Shown piece after piece: positions 26,050 to 54,321 of a stretch of DNA of 64,000 bases. The notes beneath the pieces are model-generated. The model saw only the letters and a program-made list of their open reading frames with translations. It had not been told where the DNA came from and did no database searches. Positions within the stretch are counted from its first letter, which is position 1, and every line of letters begins with the position of its first letter. The DNA is from a bacterium (lineage in GTDB: Bacteria; Bacillota_I; Bacilli_A; RFN20; CAG-288). The stretch lies in assembly GCA_963643715.1 (NCBI GenBank), contig CAVILQ010000009.1, positions 4,520 through 68,519 on the forward strand, in the 5' to 3' direction. The position numbers were made by a program, and so were the translations under genes.

Positions 26050-26386
26050 GTGTAAAAGAAATTGTTTAATTAACTTAGTGATGAAATAAAGCAATATTAA
26101 ATTATAAGAATTATAAGCAAAACATAGAATAAGTTGTGATAAAAACATCACTCTCCTAATACAACAACGCCGTAGAATGAAATGACAATCTAGTCGTTCA
26201 TAAATATGGTATCAAGTTTTGAAGGCTGTATTAAATCCTTCTCGCTATATGCGATTTTTCGTTTATGATTCATTAGGATAACCAATTCTTATCTTCTATA
26301 TATGTTCCAATGCTGAGAATCACAAAAACATTGGCTATATGATTCTTAATTTCGTTTACTTGTTTTTACTGATTTGATATAATTTA

Positions 26387-26470
<84 letters not shown>

Positions 26471-26483
26471 TTTTATTTTCAAA

Positions 26484-44885: not shown

Positions 44886-46097
44886 TTAGGCAGCGACATA
44901 GAAGAAGTTGAGTTCTTTAACAACAGTGAGAAGGATAACCCAGATGATGATACCAACAACAGCACCAAGAGTGGAAACCAAGGATATGTGAGAAGCCATT
45001 TCTTTTTCTTTGTCGAAGGAAATGCAATAACCGACAGCGACAGTGGCAGGCGGAACCATCCACGTGATGACAGCAGAGTTGACAGTATTCATAGAAATAA
45101 GCTGTGAAACATCAGAAGTAACACCATTAACAGTCTTTAAGATACCTGTTGCATTTGCGATACCCTGGATAGCGAAGAGAAGGACTAAGACGATGATAGG
45201 AGCGACGAAGACCTTAAGAGCGGTCCAGATCCAAGCATACTTATCAGCAATAGCTTCCTTGAAGTTTGTCTTTCCTAAAGTGCATCCGATAGCGATCAAG
45301 ATGACTGTGGAGGAAAGTCCACCTAATGTGTTAGCAGCCTGGTAGATCCAAGGCAATGTGACATCAATTCTCCAGAAAGCAACTTTCGTTTCAGAAACAT
45401 TAGTGCTGAGCCAATCAGTACGGACCATACCAGAGCCCGGGATAGCCTGTAAGAGCCAGAGGATAAGACCGGCGAAAGTAGCGATAACGATAGGATTGAG
45501 CAAAGCCTTCTTCAACATAGACTTGATATCAGTCTTAGGCTTTGCAGGAGCATCACCATTCAAGGAAATGTCTGCTTCAGCATCGGTATCGGTAAGGTTG
45601 GCGATAGCGACATAAGCATAAGAATATAAGAAGACACGATAGGCAACGTTCATGACGTTGAAGTTGTTACCAGCATCCTTGCCAAAGAGAGAAGAAATTA
45701 AAGGATAGGCGAAGAATGTGGTAGAACCGAAAGCGAACAAGACAGCAAGAACGACACGTTTCTTTTTGTCCTTAACCCAGATAAAGAGAAGCTTGCCGAC
45801 GAAGATGAAGAGAATGTAGAGAATGAAACCAAAGACGAAGTTGAAGAGAGCGTCGATGGCACCACTGACCGTGAAAGTTGACATAAAGGAGCAGAAGGCA
45901 AGGCAAGGAATACAGATTGCCATGACGAACTTGGTCAAAATCGTACCGGTGTTCTCAGGGATAAGTTTCTTTTTTGTAAAAATGAAACCTACAAGAATAA
46001 AGATGATAGTCTTTGCAATGTTGATCCAAAGATTGTTGGAAGACATTGCTTTTGCGATATTGGAACCAATATCACTTGCTAGTACAAAGTCAGACAT
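44886..46097 (-). CDS. AEC-family membrane transporter (malate permease / auxin-efflux-carrier type)
   Basis: 403 aa with about 10 TM helices in two halves; AEC-like N-terminus. Confidence 0.55.
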   Translation of the reverse strand: MSDFVLASDIGSNIAKAMSSNNLWINIAKTIIFILVGFIFTKKKLIPENTGTILTKFVMAICIPCLAFCSFMSTFTVSGAIDALFNFVFGFILYILFIFVGKLLFIWVKDKKKRVVLAVLFAFGSTTFFAYPLISSLFGKDAGNNFNVMNVAYRVFLYSYAYVAIANLTDTDAEADISLNGDAPAKPKTDIKSMLKKALLNPIVIATFAGLILWLLQAIPGSGMVRTDWLSTNVSETKVAFWRIDVTLPWIYQAANTLGGLSSTVILIAIGCTLGKTNFKEAIADKYAWIWTALKVFVAPIIVLVLLFAIQGIANATGILKTVNGVTSDVSQLISMNTVNSAVITWMVPPATVAVGYCISFDKEKEMASHISLVSTLGAVVGIIIWVILLTVVKELNFFYVAA

Positions 46098-46378
46098 TTA
46101 GTTAATACCTCCAATAAACTGACACGCATATTCTACTAAGTTTTTGCATTAAAACCATAGCAATTTGATAAAAAATTCGTGTAAGCGGTAGATTTTTCCA
46201 CATACGTGAAATAAAAATGATTGTTTCTTTATCAAACAATGCACATATTTTTGCTTTTAAGCAATAAATGTGCAAAAAGCAATGGATTAAAGTGATACTA
46301 CTTCAAAGCTGTCTTGATAAATCTTCTCACTAAAATAGTGAATTCATCTCTTTTTAATGTTGTCTTAAGAAACCAAAA

Positions 46379-46439
46379 TTGCCAACTTGCCAAACAAAAC
46401 ACTGCCAAATTGCCAAATAAATCATTGACAAATTGCCAA
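46379..46439. repeat. array of six TTGCCAA-like heptamers (TTGCCAA x4, CTGCCAA, TTGACAA) about 120 nt upstream of the RHS gene
   Basis: Read directly; copies are 8-15 bp apart. Confidence 0.8.
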
Positions 46440-46554
46440 ATGGAAAGTGTTATTCCTTCTTTTTTTCTGGCATACTTATGAAGAAGAAATAGGCATCAAA
46501 TCATTTTTACCCTTAAATAAAGCTTAAACTACTTTATATAATGTGATATGATAT

Positions 46555-49500
46555 ATGTGTAAAAAACGAAAGGACTTATGTCCTATGACAGCAAGCAAGG
46601 TATCAGCACAACGCATCAACTCACATCACTCATATATCGGAAGCAACCCGGAATGGTCGCTCCTTGACGGCTCCGTCCACTATTCTTATCCGATCTGCTC
46701 ATTCGGAGGAGGCCATTCCTTTTCATGTGAACTCATTTATGACTCGAACCTGCCTATCATCACCAGCGAAAAGTTCGGCGGCATGCCGTACTGCTTCATG
46801 CTGTCCTGCCACGCAAGGCTGATGCAATCGGAAGGCGGATATATCTTCGTCGATGAGGAAGGCATCCCCCATCTTTTCACAGGCTTCATCGATCAGGGAG
46901 ACACCTACTATCATGACAACGACGGGCTTGGCATGATCCTAGATGACCACAGCGACATCAGAATCGACAACGGATTCGGAACTATTCTTTACTTTGACGA
47001 CAGCATGAGACTGAGCAGGAAATGCTCTCCTGGCGTCTTTGAGATCTCCTACTCTTACGATAACATAGGAAGACTGACTTCAGTGTCGGACACGACAGGA
47101 AAGAAGCGAAAGTTTGTCTTCGAATACGACGGTGCCCTAGCCTTTGTCAAATCATATTATGAAAACAAAGTAGTTTCGATAACAAAGATAGGCTATTCAA
47201 CGAAACACGTTCTTAACATCGTAGCGAAGTGGCAGTTGCTTTCCCTTGACAGGATATCAACGGAGAACGGTTCGCAAGCAGAGCCTTTGCTCAGAATAAA
47301 GTATAAAGAGCAGGTCTTCAGCGAAGAGCCTCCCGCAGTCGAGTTCGATGACCTTTACAATCATTCAGCATTCCGGATAACATATGTAGGGGAAAAAGCC
47401 GCTAGACTGTCGTTCTCCGACATTGCCGCCGGCCTTTCGTTTAAAGAAAAGTCCTGTCTGGAAATGGCCGCTGACGAAGACATGGTCACCGTCAAGGACC
47501 AGGACGGCAAGCAAACATCATACATGCTAGACCAAAAAGGATACATCGTCTCATGTTTTAGAAAGGACGAATACGGGAATTTGCTCTCACTAGACAAGCC
47601 TATAGGAACCCGACTCGTCCTGACTAACGCTGAGACAGGAATAGATACGCTTCCGATCAGGACATGCGACAGAGGTCTCCCCGTCAAGATAACGGAATGC
47701 ATCCCACAGGGCAAAGACAAGGCCTCTCCTCTCTCAACGCTTCTCATCGACAAAGGCTGTTCTCTTTCCGTCTATGTCAGGCTGAAGGAGTCGCATCCTG
47801 GTGCCGTCCTTTCCGCCTCGGGATTCGTTTCGGCCGCGCTGAACCCCTATGCTGTCGGAACATGGCAAAAGGCACGGCTCGGGTTCAAGGACAGCAAGAC
47901 ACCGTCCGAACTGAAAATCAGTGTCACCAATGACCTGGGGGTCGCATTCAAAGCCGACATCTGTGAGCCGGTCATCGTGAATTCCGGCACCGAAAGACTG
48001 ATCCTCGGGGAAGCAGAACTCAATGAATTCAGCAGCCTGACAAAGAATTGTGAAAGAATCCGCGGCGTCGTCTCCAAGACAGACCTTCTGACCAGCATGA
48101 AGCATTTCGTGTTCTCTGACAGCATCACATATTTCCTGTGGATGAACAACGGACACGACGTCATCCAGATGGACAACGTTTCCTTCACCCTGAACGGCAG
48201 AGAGGTCCTTTTCACCGATTTCCTGAGGACGCAGGAACTGACGCTCGTGAAATATGACACGCAGAATGGATTCATGCGCGAAAGGAAACTCAAGAGAAAC
48301 GGAAACCATCAGATAACGGATGAAAAGACGATATCAGATGCCAACGGAAACGCCATCGAGCACGAGAAAAGAATGCGCGATGTCACAAATGAGGTGGTGC
48401 TCGACTCCTACGGTCTCCTTCACAGAAGCCAATATACTTCAGACGGACTGCCCTGGAGGCAGTACGACAGCAATGGCAAAGTCATCTCCGAGAATGAGTA
48501 TGACAGCGATGGGAATCTTACCTGCGCGAAGACCGATACCTCCACGCATCATTACACCTACAGCATGGGAACTCTGTCCTCAATCGCAAACGGCGGCGTG
48601 ACAAGAAGCATATACTATGACGGATTTGGAAGAACCGGCGGAGTTCGCTTTACAGACGGAAGCGAAAATCGGTTCGGCTATTTCGGGAGCCATCTGTCGT
48701 CAATCAGCGACAGTTCGATAGGAGTCGCCTTTATCACGGATTCCAGAAGGGATTATGAAGACTACTACATAAACAAGAGCCTCATAGAGCATGTGGAAAA
48801 CGGCAGTCAGACAAGGAAGAAGACATACCCTAACGGAACAGGAATCACGGAATGCTATGACAATGACGGGAATCTGATATCCGTGGTCGGCAACGGAACG
48901 GACACGGCCACAATCACAAGAAGCCCTGACACTTCCTTGCCTGTCACAGTCAAGGACGGATTCGCCGACATGACTACTGACATCGAATACAGAGGAGACA
49001 AAAGCGTCCGAAAGACTACGACGAGAAAAGGCGGAAAAGTCTATCTCACAAAGGAAGAGATACATAGCGAGTATGACACCGAATTTGTCATTGGACCTGA
49101 CTCCCTGCCATACAGAAAGGCTATAAGCAAACAAAATGCGCTCATCCGTATCATCTATGACAATGGCACTCACAAGGTCAAAGGGCTCGGAAGCGACACC
49201 TATCTCGATGCTTTGGCAAGACCGTCCAAGAAGCAAAGCGGACCGATAAGCTGCTCCTACCAGTATAAGAACGGTTCCTCTCTCCTTCATAAGCTTAGCT
49301 GTGACGCCTTCACCGAGGAGCTAGAGTACGAAAATGATTCCTTCCTCGTGTCGAAGGCAGTCTTTTCCGGATACATAAATGAAACCGATAGTTTCCGATA
49401 TGACTCATGCGGCAGACTACTTGAGGCAAGAAGAACAGGTAACGGCGATTACCGGCATATTTACAGCTACAAAGGCTCCAGGCTTGATGAAATCAAAGAT

Positions 49501-50769
49501 TACCTAAAGATAATACGCGGCAGCGACGGACTCATCAGCTCCGTTGAAGACTACCTTGGGAGAAGGCATATCGGAATCAGCTATGACAGTGCCGGAAACA
49601 TGACAAAACATGGAGACAAGGAACTCAGCTACCAGTACGGGCATAGGTTAAGCAGTGTGAAGGAAGGGCTTAACGAATCCAAATACCTATATTCCTATGA
49701 CGGGATACGCATCGAAAAGGACGTGAACGGGACCAAGACAACCTTCTACTATGACGGCAAGACTCTCTTAGGCGAGGATCGCGGCGATGAGATACGCATC
49801 CGCTATTTCCAAGACACGAACTCCTACACCGGATTCACACTCGAAGAGAAGGGGACTGACACGTTCTACCTATATCTAAAAGACTCGTTCGGAAACATAA
49901 TCGGCATCATCGACAGCCAGGGATATCTCGTAGGAAGATACATCTACGACGAAAAGGGAAGGCTTCTCGGAACGGTGCCAAACAGCAACATCAAGGATGC
50001 CGAGCACATCCTTGACATCAACCCTCTCAGGTACAGAGGCTACTACTATGACGAGGAAACCGGCTTCTATTACCTCCACGCAAGGTACTATGATCCGATT
50101 TCCATGTCTTTCCTTACCCCTGATGACAAGGAAAACATCGACGGATATTCCGTTTCGGGCGCTGATCCATACTGCTACTGCAACTATGATCCCGTCAACT
50201 ACTTCGATCCGTACGGGACCATCAATGTCCTTATAGCATTGATGCTGATCGGAGCCGCAGTCGGCGCACTCAGCTACACGGCATCGTCACTCATTTCCTA
50301 CGCCGTGACTAGAAAATGGTCCTGGTCTTGGTGCCAGTTTATCGTATCAACATTTTTTGGTGCTCTAGAAGGTGCATTGACCTTTGCTCACATACCACCC
50401 GTTTGGAGTTATTTAATTTTTAGTTCTTTACCAACAGGTATTGGTATGTGTTTACAAAATATCTTTGAGGGGACAGATTACACAACCAACCAAATCTTAA
50501 TTTCGTCAGCTTTTAGTTATTTTTTATCAGCTTTTCTCTCACGAATTCCACAGTTCTTAATCAAAGGACTTAATTATGGAAGAAACAGTTTTTCAGAAAT
50601 TGCTAGTTCAATAACAACAAAATATGCGAACAATGTAATCAAAAACATGTCAATGAAGACCATGGGAAAAATATTCATTTCCAATCTTTATGACTCCACA
50701 TATGGGATACTTTCCGATGCCTTTTTTAGTATCCTCGACGACGATGAAAAGGAGGAAGCATTTGCATAA
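46555..50769 (+). CDS. RHS/YD-repeat polymorphic toxin with hydrophobic multi-helix C-terminal domain
   Basis: Many YD repeats (YDSNGKVISENEYDSDGN, YYDGFGRT, YSYDGIR...). The RHS core ends at ARYYDPISMSFLTPD...DPVNYFDPYG, followed by about 180 aa containing four hydrophobic helices. The body is high-GC and GC drops at about 50335. No signal peptide. An alternative start exists at 46585. Confidence 0.85.
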   Translation: MCKKRKDLCPMTASKVSAQRINSHHSYIGSNPEWSLLDGSVHYSYPICSFGGGHSFSCELIYDSNLPIITSEKFGGMPYCFMLSCHARLMQSEGGYIFVDEEGIPHLFTGFIDQGDTYYHDNDGLGMILDDHSDIRIDNGFGTILYFDDSMRLSRKCSPGVFEISYSYDNIGRLTSVSDTTGKKRKFVFEYDGALAFVKSYYENKVVSITKIGYSTKHVLNIVAKWQLLSLDRISTENGSQAEPLLRIKYKEQVFSEEPPAVEFDDLYNHSAFRITYVGEKAARLSFSDIAAGLSFKEKSCLEMAADEDMVTVKDQDGKQTSYMLDQKGYIVSCFRKDEYGNLLSLDKPIGTRLVLTNAETGIDTLPIRTCDRGLPVKITECIPQGKDKASPLSTLLIDKGCSLSVYVRLKESHPGAVLSASGFVSAALNPYAVGTWQKARLGFKDSKTPSELKISVTNDLGVAFKADICEPVIVNSGTERLILGEAELNEFSSLTKNCERIRGVVSKTDLLTSMKHFVFSDSITYFLWMNNGHDVIQMDNVSFTLNGREVLFTDFLRTQELTLVKYDTQNGFMRERKLKRNGNHQITDEKTISDANGNAIEHEKRMRDVTNEVVLDSYGLLHRSQYTSDGLPWRQYDSNGKVISENEYDSDGNLTCAKTDTSTHHYTYSMGTLSSIANGGVTRSIYYDGFGRTGGVRFTDGSENRFGYFGSHLSSISDSSIGVAFITDSRRDYEDYYINKSLIEHVENGSQTRKKTYPNGTGITECYDNDGNLISVVGNGTDTATITRSPDTSLPVTVKDGFADMTTDIEYRGDKSVRKTTTRKGGKVYLTKEEIHSEYDTEFVIGPDSLPYRKAISKQNALIRIIYDNGTHKVKGLGSDTYLDALARPSKKQSGPISCSYQYKNGSSLLHKLSCDAFTEELEYENDSFLVSKAVFSGYINETDSFRYDSCGRLLEARRTGNGDYRHIYSYKGSRLDEIKDYLKIIRGSDGLISSVEDYLGRRHIGISYDSAGNMTKHGDKELSYQYGHRLSSVKEGLNESKYLYSYDGIRIEKDVNGTKTTFYYDGKTLLGEDRGDEIRIRYFQDTNSYTGFTLEEKGTDTFYLYLKDSFGNIIGIIDSQGYLVGRYIYDEKGRLLGTVPNSNIKDAEHILDINPLRYRGYYYDEETGFYYLHARYYDPISMSFLTPDDKENIDGYSVSGADPYCYCNYDPVNYFDPYGTINVLIALMLIGAAVGALSYTASSLISYAVTRKWSWSWCQFIVSTFFGALEGALTFAHIPPVWSYLIFSSLPTGIGMCLQNIFEGTDYTTNQILISSAFSYFLSAFLSRIPQFLIKGLNYGRNSFSEIASSITTKYANNVIKNMSMKTMGKIFISNLYDSTYGILSDAFFSILDDDEKEEAFA

Positions 50770-51323
50770 TGAAAAAGAAAATATATTTTCAAGACAGCAT
50801 CCCATATCACATTTTATTTTCTATCCCTTTAATAATTGGCATAGCAACAATCACGTTTGCAGTTGTAGAATTGATACATTCTCCTTCTACGAACTTATAT
50901 TTGAATATTTTTTTGATATTTGCTGGATTGTATTGTTTTTACGTCTTTTTAGACACAGAGTCTTTTATCATCCACATGGATGATAAAAAGGTTTGGATGA
51001 TAGGAGAACCTGTCATTGAACCTTTACGAACTCAGTACAAAGCTGAAGTCCTGTTTTCTGACATCATTAACATTTATATTGTCAGGTCTCACACAAACAG
51101 CAAAGGAAAAAAATATGAAAACAGAAACAGAAAAGTAAGACTTGGAATTAGAGCCTATTTGGTGTTTACAAAGAAGAATGGTCACAAGGTCAGAATGTTG
51201 GTCAGTTATCACACAAGGGAACATCTATTAGAAATCATCAGTGAAATCATCGTTCGAATCAATGCTACAGGTAACATATACGAAGGAAATGACCCTCTTT
51301 GGATTGTCAATCACATCAAATGA
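50769..51323 (+). CDS. candidate immunity protein (two-TM, 184 aa) translationally coupled to the RHS toxin
   Basis: Its ATG overlaps the RHS stop (TAATG). Two N-terminal TM helices. It is a paralogue of the next ORF, sharing the C-terminal IIRRINATGN.YEG..PLWI block. Confidence 0.65.
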   Translation: MKKKIYFQDSIPYHILFSIPLIIGIATITFAVVELIHSPSTNLYLNIFLIFAGLYCFYVFLDTESFIIHMDDKKVWMIGEPVIEPLRTQYKAEVLFSDIINIYIVRSHTNSKGKKYENRNRKVRLGIRAYLVFTKKNGHKVRMLVSYHTREHLLEIISEIIVRINATGNIYEGNDPLWIVNHIK

Positions 51324-51413
51324 AGAACTGCAATCTTTTTATAGCCATATAAGTTTGGCCTTATCAATATTATCGTTATAAACCATTTGAATTCAGTAAA
51401 GGAGAAACTGGTA

Positions 51414-52004
51414 ATGAAAAAGAAAACATATTTACAAAACGATATATCGTATTATATAGCAATGTTTTTAATGTTTGTGCTTGCACTTACATCTGTCGGT
51501 TTAGGAATTTATCCTCTTATAAAATTGTTTACATCAGAATCTGACACTCGAGACGCTTTAAATATCATCCTTTTGATAATTTTCTTAATTATTTTTCTCG
51601 CATTAGCAGCGTATGTAGTTTTTATTACGATTGGTGAAATGAGCATCATCATATATATGGATGATGAAAAAATATGGATGAACGATGACCTAAAGTTAAA
51701 AAGGCTGCGATTACAGTATAAAACTGAAGCATACTTCTCGGAAATTAAAGATATCCGTTTAATCAAGAACAAAAAGGATAGCAAATCACATAGTTTTCCA
51801 AAAGACAGCATCTATCCCGGAAAACAAAAATATCTTGTCCTTACAATGAAAGACGATCATGTCGAAAGACTGAATGTCACATATTTCAGAAAAGGAACAA
51901 TCGGAAAAATCATCTGTGAAATCATTCGAAGAATCAATGCTACAGGTAACACATACGAAGGAAAATACCCTCTTTGGATTTTCAATAACATCACCTTAGA
52001 ATAA
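51414..52004 (+). CDS. paralogue of the preceding protein (second candidate/orphan immunity protein)
   Basis: Same architecture with strong C-terminal identity and a diverged N-terminal TM region. Start taken at MKKKTYLQ, which has an AAAGGAG ribosome-binding site. Confidence 0.6.
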   Translation: MKKKTYLQNDISYYIAMFLMFVLALTSVGLGIYPLIKLFTSESDTRDALNIILLIIFLIIFLALAAYVVFITIGEMSIIIYMDDEKIWMNDDLKLKRLRLQYKTEAYFSEIKDIRLIKNKKDSKSHSFPKDSIYPGKQKYLVLTMKDDHVERLNVTYFRKGTIGKIICEIIRRINATGNTYEGKYPLWIFNNITLE

Positions 52005-52030
52005 TCCTATTAGAATCATCAGCCAAGAGA

Positions 52031-52065
52031 AAAGGCAAGCCGTATGATTGACTTGCCTTTTTTTG
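52031..52065. terminator. bidirectional intrinsic terminator (aaggcaag-...-cttgcctt-TTTTTT)
   Basis: Hairpin plus a T-run between the convergent 51414-52004 and 52073-53362 genes. Confidence 0.6.
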
Positions 52066-52072
52066 ATTTGAA

Positions 52073-53362
52073 TTAAGAACGTGCCTGATAGACTGGCTTA
52101 GATGTATCGGTTGTCGTGGGAGGACAGATACGATTCATGATGAAGACAGCACGGATAAGGTTTGCACCGATGATAATCATCATCGAATAGTTGGAAGCGA
52201 AGAATCCGAAGATCATGCTAAGGAGTGCAGGAGTGAGAGACATGTTCACAGCGGTGTTGATAGCATGGAAGTAGTTGCTTTCACGATAGATAGAGGACTT
52301 TCTCTTGAAGAAGATGATAAGAAGGACAGAGGAGACAAGGATAGAAGCAGCACCAGCAACGGTGAGAGTAAGAATATTCATCCAAACGGAATGAATCGTA
52401 TAATCTCTTGCCGATTCATTCGCTAAGGAAACGAAGTTGTTTGTGAATCCATCTTGGATGTTATAAGCACCCTTATTGAGGATGAAATCATAGAGAGAAG
52501 TAGAACCATTGAGATCCATCTTAGCAAGACCTAAATCCAATTTGCCAACATAGGAACCAGATGCGCTTGTAGTGGATGTTGTAGCAGTGAAAGGATAGAA
52601 GGCGACTAACATATAATCCTTGAGAAGGATCATATAGGAATGCGGAACGTTATGATTCACACCATTGAGGTCTTTGTTCAAGATAATGGTAGTGGTGAAG
52701 TTAGAAAGATATGTGGAGAAATTATCATCGTTTCTGGAAAGCTCCGGTAACATATAGAGTTCAAGATAGATTCTTCTTTCTGTTGTTTCGGTCTTTGTCT
52801 CAGTGCCGTCGCTGTTCTTAGTTGTGTTGGTGACATTGATATCTGCACCGATGGAATCGAAGTAGTAGATTTTCTCCATATCGGTAGCTGTCTTAACATA
52901 GGGGCTAGCACCATCACTGACCTTATCGACATAAGTAGAACGGAATAATGCTTTATCGCTGGTTCCATTCAATTCGTTAGTCCAGTTATAGGCGCTATCA
53001 TCACCTGTTTTTTCACCATAGTACTTTTCATCATTCAATCCAGAGAGATCAAGAGTGCGAACACCATCTTTTTCAACGATATTGATGCTCTTGAAGTAAT
53101 CCTCTTCAGAGATGACATGCTTCAAAGCAGTAGAGACTTCATAATTGCTCGTGCTAGAAAAGACAGCTCCTCCATTGGTACGATATCCTGTGGAAAGGGT
53201 AGGAATCCAAGGAAGAAAAATAGCAAGAACAAACATAGTCAGAGTGACATACCACTTCATTTTGCGGTTGTCTAAGGCTGCTTGGTTGCTGTACAAAGAT
53301 TTTAATATGTTTTTGAGTGTGAACATTTTTCTTTTTTCCTTATTATAAATATATAAAGACAA
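52073..53362 (-). CDS. hypothetical membrane protein (N-terminal TM, large extracytoplasmic domain, C-terminal TM bundle; ABC-2-permease-like topology)
   Basis: Hydrophobicity pattern only; no partner ATPase is adjacent. Confidence 0.4.
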   Translation of the reverse strand: MSLYIYNKEKRKMFTLKNILKSLYSNQAALDNRKMKWYVTLTMFVLAIFLPWIPTLSTGYRTNGGAVFSSTSNYEVSTALKHVISEEDYFKSINIVEKDGVRTLDLSGLNDEKYYGEKTGDDSAYNWTNELNGTSDKALFRSTYVDKVSDGASPYVKTATDMEKIYYFDSIGADINVTNTTKNSDGTETKTETTERRIYLELYMLPELSRNDDNFSTYLSNFTTTIILNKDLNGVNHNVPHSYMILLKDYMLVAFYPFTATTSTTSASGSYVGKLDLGLAKMDLNGSTSLYDFILNKGAYNIQDGFTNNFVSLANESARDYTIHSVWMNILTLTVAGAASILVSSVLLIIFFKRKSSIYRESNYFHAINTAVNMSLTPALLSMIFGFFASNYSMMIIIGANLIRAVFIMNRICPPTTTDTSKPVYQARS

Positions 53363-53673
53363 AAGTCTTTACGAGTTATTATTATCTCTTAAATAGAATG
53401 ATTTTACAATAAAAATCAACCAATGCTTATTTGCTGTCGAAAAAGAGAGGATGTCAGTTTTTTCCATACTAGTTCACTTATATTTTTTTGAAAACATCCC
53501 TAAATCATCCACATATTTCAAATAAAATCATCGGACAGAGAAATAATAAAAGAGACAAAAACATAAACAACTTGTTGAAAATTCAAAATCGCTAAGCATA
53601 GTTTTTGTAGTTATAAGTTGTCTTTTTACTATTTTTTTAGTATACTTGTAATACCATTTTGGAGGAAAAAAAT

Positions 53674-54321
53674 ATGGCTAAAGAAAGATCTACACCACGT
53701 TACATCAAAATCGCTCAGGACGTCTGCGGTAAAATCCTTACCGGTGAATATCCTGAAGGAACATTATTGAAGGGCCGTTCCATCTTAGGAGCCGCCTATG
53801 GCGTTTCCCCGGAAACTGTCAGAAAGGCTCTCAACATTCTTGAAAAGGAGAAGGTCGTTTCTTCTAAGAGAGGTGTCGGCGTCTATGTCGATTCCGTCTT
53901 ACACGCTCAGGAATTCGCAAACAAGTGGAAAGCCGAGACTCAGATCAAGGACAAGTATGCTACTCTCGAGAAGCTTCTCATCGAACAGAAAGAACTTCAG
54001 GCCAAGATTAACACAGCCATCGATGATATGAAGGATTCCTTCACCTATCAGACAACCGAAGCCGTCAAGTTCTCCCAGGTCGAAGTCCCTCAGAACTCTT
54101 GGATCAATGGAAAGACAGTCGGCGAAGTCTACTTCTGGAACTACACCGAAGCCACCATTGTTGCTGTCATCGGCAGCGACAATATCGCCAAGCAGTCTGT
54201 CGGTCCGGATTTCGTTCTCCATTCTGGAGACAGAATCATCTTTGTCGGAAAAGACAACCTCACTTTCGACAGAGTCCTTTCCTTCCTCACCTATGGTGTC
54301 ATCAACCAGGGTCAGGAATAA
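53674..54321 (+). CDS. GntR-family transcriptional regulator with C-terminal TrkA-C-like domain
   Basis: N-terminal GntR wHTH (RSILGAAYGVSPETVRKALNILE), then a coiled segment and a small C-terminal ligand-binding-like domain. Confidence 0.6.
   Translation: MAKERSTPRYIKIAQDVCGKILTGEYPEGTLLKGRSILGAAYGVSPETVRKALNILEKEKVVSSKRGVGVYVDSVLHAQEFANKWKAETQIKDKYATLEKLLIEQKELQAKINTAIDDMKDSFTYQTTEAVKFSQVEVPQNSWINGKTVGEVYFWNYTEATIVAVIGSDNIAKQSVGPDFVLHSGDRIIFVGKDNLTFDRVLSFLTYGVINQGQE

Follow-up and report, generated by a model that had tools for sequence, protein, structure and literature searches.

Enterobacterial rhs loci have a G+C-rich core, then an A+T-rich core extension, with a trough of low GC that runs past the gene (Hill and colleagues; Jackson et al. 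2009, PMC2935791), and cores and tips evolve separately via homologous recombination at conserved sequence (PMC2935791). We analyzed a 64,000-nt stretch of contig CAVILQ010000009.1 (hereafter the window; mean GC 0.395), from a bacterium of the GTDB lineage CAG-288, that contains an Rhs/YD-repeat protein gene followed by two small genes, I1 and I2. The Rhs gene holds a sharp step in GC content, and this step probably marks the boundary between two differently evolving parts of a polymorphic Rhs toxin operon. The locus resembles classical Enterobacteriaceae Rhs in its YD-repeat core ending in DPxG, its variable AT-rich C-terminus, the small gene that follows, and exchange at conserved sequence. 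A low-GC trough comparable to the classical one (PMC2935791) was also present (GC 0.49 versus 0.31–0.34 through 52.0 kb). As in other Rhs polymorphic toxins, the C-terminal region varied between strains, here only from 41 codons past DPYG. Unlike classical Rhs, the junction was within the toxin domain and downstream of a helix and a motif that are invariant, and an internal 279-nt part of one toxin family was swapped rather than unrelated whole tips, with alleles that look like an old polymorphism common to two species. The host also differed in being AT-rich (40% GC) with strong Shine-Dalgarno sites, scans of the Rhs protein and neighbouring ORFs returned no vgr/hcp/PAAR context, and the window had no classical array of displaced orphan tips and core fragments: the motif occurred once in 64 kb and there were no core-derived repeats downstream.

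Tse5-CT, carried on a Pseudomonas Rhs protein, and the glycine-zipper LXG toxins TspA and TelE are membrane-depolarising toxins on polymorphic effectors, and in pore-forming colicins immunity specificity is set by helix-helix recognition within the membrane. EsxX is a membrane-depolarising glycine-zipper LXG toxin with downstream membrane immunity genes, sometimes more than one per toxin (PMC12744356). The ionophore toxins of contact-dependent growth inhibition (CDI) have helical membrane-spanning domains of one fold, with strong variation among members of a group at the positions that face the immunity protein; the CdiI proteins that confer immunity are small, highly polymorphic membrane proteins specific to the cognate toxin (Halvorsen et al. 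2024, PMC11630599).

The first-pass annotation of the window had reported a sharp GC break inside an RHS body of roughly 50% GC, near position 50335 and about 115 nt past the core/C-terminal junction, and had proposed a sliding GC profile and an alignment of core and tip against homologues as checks. Both were run and both bore the break out. GC in 200-nt sliding windows was 0.46–0.53 over 47.3–50.4 kb and 0.28–0.36 over 50.4–52.0 kb. The change point in GC at third codon positions (GC3) was at codon 1253/1254 counted from the ATG at 46585 (nt 50341–50346; 2-lnL interval codons 1248–1257), with a log-likelihood ratio (LLR) of 26.6 that was attained in 0/5000 codon permutations (permutation maximum 13.7). 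This was by far the strongest step within any of the 44 open reading frames (ORFs) of the window, the runner-up having an LLR of 4.7. The break was thus close to its first placement, 123 nt (41 codons) downstream of the end of DPYG (50217) and directly after the WSWSWCQF motif. Using all bases, the maximum-likelihood change point was 50409 (2-lnL interval 50332–50416; LLR 66), and across the window and four syntenic loci this point lay 59–117 nt beyond the motif. Over the window as a whole, the GC step of greatest size was at ~53675; it is an ordinary gene/intergenic boundary at the end of a very AT-rich intergenic stretch (53200–53680; GC 0.24–0.30) between a 429-aa ORF and a GntR gene.

The step was largest at synonymous positions. 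GC was 0.49 in the core before the break (GC1/2/3 0.47/0.39/0.60) and 0.34 after it (0.35/0.39/0.30), with GC3 falling from about 0.60–0.61 to 0.29–0.30 across the change point. In the core, the base in excess at third positions was specifically C (0.41). Two-fold pyrimidine codons ended in C at a rate of 0.66 before the break and 0.26 after it; the corresponding figures for the two small ORFs and for the host were about 0.40 and 0.41. GC3 of the 41 other window ORFs was 0.416 +/- 0.058 (range 0.29–0.57), so that the core exceeded all of them and the tip lay near the bottom of the host range rather than in its middle.

Close homologues of the window Rhs protein formed only four clusters among 5.8 billion proteins (92, 76, 59, and 57% identity), all with the same architecture, and their contigs were syntenic: 2-hydroxyacid dehydrogenase, Mem_trans, Rhs, one or two small ORFs, and then a ~417-aa membrane ORF. 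A scan of genome contigs found 2 loci only, and word-indexed profile searches with the tip and immunity profiles returned 13 proteins each. Members of the clusters and their contigs supplied 14 syntenic loci besides the window, from related metagenome genomes (labelled L001–L009 and L013–L015); the comparison sequences were metagenome contigs throughout, taken from NCBI, ENA, and Logan. Species 1 comprised the window, L003, L006/L007, and L009, with 95–99% core nucleotide identity. Species 2 comprised L001, L005, L008, and L013–L015, with 96–97% core identity among those measured and 78–79% to species 1. L004 and L002 represented two more distant lineages (~63% core nucleotide identity), and two distant Rhs loci with the same toxin tip family, L010 and L011, were outside the syntenic set. 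The locus in L001 (CAVALL010000051.1) also had 40% GC and strong Shine-Dalgarno sites.

Segment by segment, the GC drop was found in 9/9 profiled syntenic loci carrying either allele class of the variable cassette described below, including the lineages with 63% core identity. The height of the step tracked the core, for which GC was 0.49, 0.455, 0.425, and 0.413 in four lineages while the tip and small ORFs were steady at 0.30–0.40; core GC3 likewise varied among lineages from 0.44 to 0.61 and tip and small-ORF GC3 stayed low. In the distant Rhs genes L010 and L011, GC3 did not change stepwise at the motif, which makes the step a feature of this clade and not of the toxin domain and rules out a candidate explanation by which it would be a property of the whole toxin family.

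The alignments placed a boundary in sequence identity at the break. Between the window and its conspecific L003, nucleotide identity was 97–100% in flanking genes and 91–100% in the Rhs core, fell to 46–56% over 50341–50619, returned to 90% at the Rhs 3' end (50626–50772), fell again to 55–63% in the 5' part of I1 (50773–51218), and was 98–100% from ~51219 onward, including all of I2 (51414–52004). In 4/4 within-species pairs (window/L003, L006/L009, L005/L008, and L005/L001) the first mismatch was the base that immediately follows WSWSWCQF, at +24 counted from the start of the motif, and L006 and L009 differed by only 2 mismatches in the 900 nt before it. Base 50340 is thus the last one common to the allele classes. 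Both ends of the tip (its first 41 and its last 49 codons) and I2 followed the species tree, with nucleotide identities within species of 90–97% for the last 49 tip codons and 94–100% for I2 (79–81% between species).

The first variable segment, which we call V, occurred as two allele classes with 47–52% nucleotide identity to each other. Class A reads AGS(V/I)IGG... and class B, which the window carries (IVSTFFGALEGALT...), reads IVST(F/I)FG.LEGALT.... Both classes were found on the core backgrounds of both species. Synonymous divergence (dS, by the Nei-Gojobori method) between classes in V was 1.3–4.5 compared to 0.016–0.10 in the adjoining cores, and in one pair a core dS of 0.016 was followed within the next 279 nt by a dS of at least 1.3. 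These values indicate old allelic lineages joined by recombination rather than local mutation, and divergence of V by point mutation in place was ruled out by the adjacency of those two figures. Alleles of the same class in species 1 and species 2 had a dS of 0.63–0.80 where the flanks had 0.26–0.29. The classes therefore predate the species split, and a recent cassette transfer between species was ruled out on the same comparison. In both sister species at least two such ancient classes (A and B) are segregating, having arisen before the species separated, a pattern that fits long-term balancing selection on toxin/immunity specificity. Between species, dS was 1.09 (confidence interval 0.92–1.25) in the core, 0.61 (0.49–0.77) in V, tip end, I1, and I2 together, and 0.26–0.29 in flanks; the two parts of the operon have different histories.

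The second variable patch was the 5' part of I1 (~50769–51210, three-quarters of the gene), with an alpha and a beta type. All six class B loci carried beta-type I1 (6/6; three distinct alleles), as the window does, and 3/4 class A loci of the two species carried the alpha type, so that I1 type agreed with tip class in 9/10 loci. The remaining class A locus, L008 (an SRR19415677 contig), had a beta I1. L005 and L008 differed in V while their I1 genes were alike at 96% nucleotide identity, and the two patches are therefore separable. L008 is either a natural recombinant, for which the protein responsible for self-immunity would be in question, or a subtle mosaic from assembly; a simple assembly chimera is unlikely since its I1 was only 89–94% identical in amino acids to those of class B strains, not ~100%. 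Table 1 lists the features of the locus.

Table 1 Features of the Rhs–I1–I2 operon, in window positions
Feature	Positions	Strand	Description
Rhs/YD-repeat protein gene	46555..50769	+	Longest ORF; public identical proteins start at ATG 46585 (1394 aa)
RHS repeat-associated core domain	50014..50217	+	TIGR03696, E 2.8e-15, residues 1144-1211
Constant first 41 tip codons	50218..50340	+	Strongly hydrophobic helix (LIGAAVGALSYTASSLISYA) and start of second helix
WSWSWCQF motif	50317..50340	+	24-nt block, nearly DNA-invariant (codon alignment)
Variable cassette V	50341..50619	+	279 nt, 93 codons; predicted helices 2-4 of tip; GC 0.33
Conserved last 49 tip codons	50620..50766	+	Amphipathic helix and acidic tail; AT-rich, not exchanged
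I1, putative immunity protein	50769..51323	+	Predicted two transmembrane helices and PH-like domain
I1 conserved 3' block	51232..51318	+	Repeat family D1; right-hand edge of I1 patch
I2, paralogue of I1 (36% aa)	51414..52004	+	Strong Shine-Dalgarno site; AT-rich, GC 0.31; follows species tree
Hairpin terminator	52027..52064	+	Closes Rhs-I1-I2 unit; common to convergent 429-aa ORF; -18.6 kcal/mol, z -3.5

The Rhs protein contained YD (RHS) repeats (PF05593 RHS_repeat, E 1e-10; TIGR01643, E 4e-8), and its core domain ended in DPYG (50206–50217), the canonical core/tip junction. The protein P0126 is identical to the window Rhs protein from M11 onward. The tip starts with TINVLIALMLIGAAVGALSYTASSLISYAVTRKWSWSWCQF. 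Its constant first 41 codons kept core-like composition (GC3 0.63), and their helix (residues 8–35 of the AlphaFold2, or AF2, model) had a Kyte-Doolittle (KD) hydropathy of 1.78. The block L1231–F1262 (numbered from 46555) was invariant in five lineages with cores only 57–92% identical. WSWSWCQF had one occurrence in the 64-kb window, where 0 were expected. Its DNA could also form a 5-bp hairpin (window 50322–50337, CTGGT...GCCAG, then TTTAT), probably by chance, as a terminator-like scan gave 8 such sites versus 5.3 expected. Two ENA contigs of species 1 encoded 1216-aa Rhs versions (P0123 and P0127) with a frameshift at about residue 1137 and out-of-frame sequence after it; they are either inactivated copies or assembly errors.

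The arrangement is that of the classical GC-rich core and AT-rich extension with the junction moved 41 codons past DPxG, because the first helix of the toxin is invariant. The constant, GC3-rich part (46585–50340) consists of the shell of YD repeats, the end of the core at DPYG, and 41 initial toxin residues with the hydrophobic helix and WSWSWCQF. The AT-rich part from 50341 contains the remaining tip and the paralogous predicted membrane proteins I1 and I2. Homologous exchange of the 279-nt cassette, encoding predicted helices 2–4, probably uses the 24-nt motif as its left anchor and the GRNSF/KYANNVIKNM block as its right anchor. A second cassette, the predicted I1 transmembrane hairpin with most of the PH-like domain, lies between the conserved 3' end of Rhs and an 87-nt block common to I1 and I2. 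That block (51232–51318 versus 51907–51993) was 87% identical between the two genes, and their 5' blocks were also alike (50767–50812 versus 51412–51457; 46 nt, 76%). Such shared blocks could mediate cassette exchange, or duplication/deletion, between both genes.

A process acting on the core is the alternative that fares best, although we consider it rather unlikely to be the whole explanation. GC-biased gene conversion or selection for C-ending codons would raise core GC, while the variable region, sheltered from homologous exchange, would drift to an AT-rich equilibrium. It would account for the C enrichment of core third positions (0.41), the C-ending codon use of 0.66, and a core GC3 that ranges over 0.44–0.61 by lineage beside a constantly low tip and small-ORF GC3. 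Polarised synonymous changes on the species 1 branch were also in excess from AT to GC (56:27 relative to GC to AT), but the outgroups were saturated and the excess with two outgroups was only 21:14. However, I2 and the last 49 tip codons were homogenised within species (94–100%) and still AT-rich, and GC enrichment from homogenisation alone is accordingly insufficient. A core process could add to the boundary between two differently evolving operon parts rather than replace it.

The first-pass annotation had read the break differently, as the trace of a tip-plus-immunity module exchanged by recombination while the repeat core kept its donor composition. In the form of a recent replacement of the whole tip and immunity module by a host-adapted AT-rich cassette, with the step as its scar and a core of foreign GC, we find this account improbable. 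In its favour, the cassette difference from a conspecific strain begins exactly at the step, core GC3 (0.60) exceeds that of all 41 other ORFs while I1 and I2 have host-like C-ending codons, and between-species dS is higher in the core (1.09) than in the tip and small ORFs (0.61). It is contradicted as a sufficient cause by the presence of the step at the same codon in every profiled syntenic locus; since these nine loci carry either allele class, the GC step is not the scar of an exchange in this strain. The difference is confined to 279 nt of the tip and a portion of I1, and the non-exchanged 50620–50766 and 51414–52004 (I2) were just as AT-rich as the exchanged segments. The window and L005, both class B, had a uniform ~79% nucleotide identity over core, V, I1, and I2 (flanks 93–97%), and thus no identity step at 50340 in a same-class comparison across species. 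Tip GC3 was below the host mean, and a foreign core losing its donor composition should show a GC-to-AT excess, with which the opposite lean of 56:27 does not fit (weakly, given the saturated outgroup). What stands of the earlier account is a real junction of recombination or polymorphism that involves a putative immunity gene; what moves is V and a separate I1 patch, not the whole module.

It is very improbable that the step is a by-product of amino-acid composition, with AT-rich codons in a hydrophobic Phe/Ile/Leu-rich tip. GC1 did drop as well (0.47 to 0.35), and F, I, L, and S are abundant in the tip, but the greatest drop was at synonymous positions (GC3 0.61 to 0.29), the equally hydrophobic constant helix upstream held a GC3 of 0.63, and L010 and L011 had the same toxin family and no step at the motif, which together refute this reading. 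Least probable of all is a two-organism assembly chimera joined inside Rhs, for which the apparent metagenome-type assembly and a junction at a conserved block where assemblers can switch strains would speak, because the identical protein (M11 to stop) is on record from NCBI and Logan sources, the architecture and GC step recur in independent contigs, and both flanks are 97–100% identical to L003.

The tip is predicted to be a helical domain and is probably membrane-active. Its AF2 model was all-helical with six helices (pLDDT 74, pTM 0.63), of which the constant helix was strongly hydrophobic and three inside V were moderately so (KD 0.7–1.2). A profile built from five tips retrieved 322 representatives (at 50% identity) from 1.84 billion proteins, the majority of them C-terminal on RHS-repeat proteins directly after DPxG. 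The family conserves the first helix, the WxWSW motif, and a GxxxGGAxGG zipper, which class A alleles retain; the window class B allele kept the IGAAVGA stretch of helix 1. The I1 model (pLDDT 80) had helices at 11–37 and 43–66, then strands and a helix at 150–166. Its best matches in the PDB were EROS (8kei_D, E 4e-3, probability 0.95) and the PH domains of Btk, Sac2, and FACT, none at E <= 0.001, and a Pfam search with I1 had no match. Relatives of I1 and I2 were found in this clade only, and PADLOC gave no anti-phage defence annotation for Rhs, I1, I2, or the 429-aa ORF.

Expression signals tie I1 to the toxin gene. The I1 ATG overlaps the Rhs stop (TAATG), an arrangement of translational coupling, and its Shine-Dalgarno sequence AAGGAGG is embedded in Glu/Lys codons of the conserved acidic tail of Rhs (window 50744–50771), which may partly explain the conservation of that tail. 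I2 could be an orphan immunity gene, though there is no toxin fragment before it. Just upstream of Rhs, five TTGCCAA/CTGCCAA copies occur within 66 nt (window 46377–46442) and overlap a TTGACA at 46427; this array could be an operator controlling the toxin operon.

We infer that the tip would be released at DPYG and act as a membrane-inserting, depolarising helical toxin, which I1 would neutralise within the membrane with the variable regions setting specificity. The CDI ionophore toxins are the closest functional analogue of this putative toxin, and V with I1-alpha/I1-beta looks like the same logic. The carrier here is an Rhs shell and not CdiA, and no sequence similarity was detected and no entry domain identified. 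Tse5-CT, EsxX, TspA, and TelE share with the tip a C-terminal hydrophobic, small-residue-rich helical domain, and the family consensus here has the zipper GxxxGGxxGG, but sequence and fold searches gave no homology to them and class B of the window is without the three zipper glycines. Unlike EsxX-type systems with two unrelated immunity families, I1 and I2 are paralogues of a single family with a transmembrane hairpin and PH-like domain, and unlike the Tse5-CT and LXG systems no marker of type VI or type VII secretion was found in the scanned ORFs. Helix-helix recognition of the colicin type would explain, by analogy, why toxin helices 2–4 tend to vary with the I1 transmembrane hairpin; pore-forming colicins are unrelated in fold and delivery route, and the comparison goes no further than that.

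Taken more broadly, we tentatively propose, as a possibility of somewhat less than even weight, that the tip belongs to an undescribed, widespread Rhs toxin family in which the invariant helix and WxWSW serve as a built-in recombination junction for separate toxin and immunity swaps. Old specificity alleles, one of them without a glycine zipper, would then persist across two gut-associated species on an Rhs carrier without a recognisable export signal.

Several observations weigh against the boundary and toxin interpretation. The tip had no match in Pfam or NCBIfam and nothing significant in the PDB with Foldseek, and in the window class B allele the three near-invariant zipper positions are V47, F51, and E55 rather than glycines. 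The Pfam scan of the Rhs protein and the scanned neighbour ORFs gave no PAAR, LXG, or secretion-system genes, and the Rhs N-terminus did not look like a signal peptide, as judged by eye alone. No positive selection was seen in pairwise comparisons, with a dN/dS of 0.15–0.52 in V and no pair above 1. The link between V and I1 is imperfect given the discordance of L008 (Fisher p ~0.03 over independent contigs, which are phylogenetically related and represent few independent alleles). I2 and the tip end are homogenised within the species yet AT-rich. Lastly, false mosaics can arise when metagenome assemblers jump from one strain to another at a conserved block, but the pattern recurred in roughly twelve independent contigs drawn from NCBI, ENA, and Logan.

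Neighbouring genes showed variation of their own. The Mem_trans gene (window 44886–46097, minus strand) had dips in identity to L003 at 45048–45197 (0.81) and 45283–45482 (0.74–0.79), where the flanks had 97–100%. Its dN was also raised, and it resembles another mosaic produced by recombination, adjacent to the Rhs locus. In L002 (8793–10387, minus strand) the position of I2 was held by an AbiLi-like ATPase (PADLOC PDLC02335, E 4.5e-34) and a 149-aa ORF, which appear to be a defence gene pair inserted in the low-GC trough. An AAA_14/DUF4143 ATPase gene variably adjoined the Rhs locus (L004 6589–7869, L014 427–1707, and L005 1–1187), directly upstream of Rhs in L004 and L014, and was absent from the window. 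Species 2 and L002 had a GH36 alpha-galactosidase gene between the small ORFs and the ~417-aa membrane ORF (L001 5934–8108, L005 9537–11711, L008 7574–9748, and L002 11026–13200) that was absent from the species of the window. The sole Rfam match in the window was a small bacterial signal recognition particle RNA (RF00169, 57.6 bits) at 26383–26480 on the plus strand.

The locus offers a nucleotide-precise, population-level case of Rhs toxin diversification in which a short internal cassette, anchored on the invariant 24-nt motif, is exchanged in place of whole-tip displacement, and in which the immunity gene has a cassette of its own that can move separately from that of the toxin. It also shows that a composition step can be a long-standing boundary between parts of a gene and not a recent transfer, a caution for calls of horizontal transfer based on GC. 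The analysis flags a common Rhs-borne toxin domain without annotation, together with a putative immunity family that combines a transmembrane hairpin and a PH-like domain. Natural chimeras of A/B cassettes with alpha/beta I1 would map immunity specificity directly.

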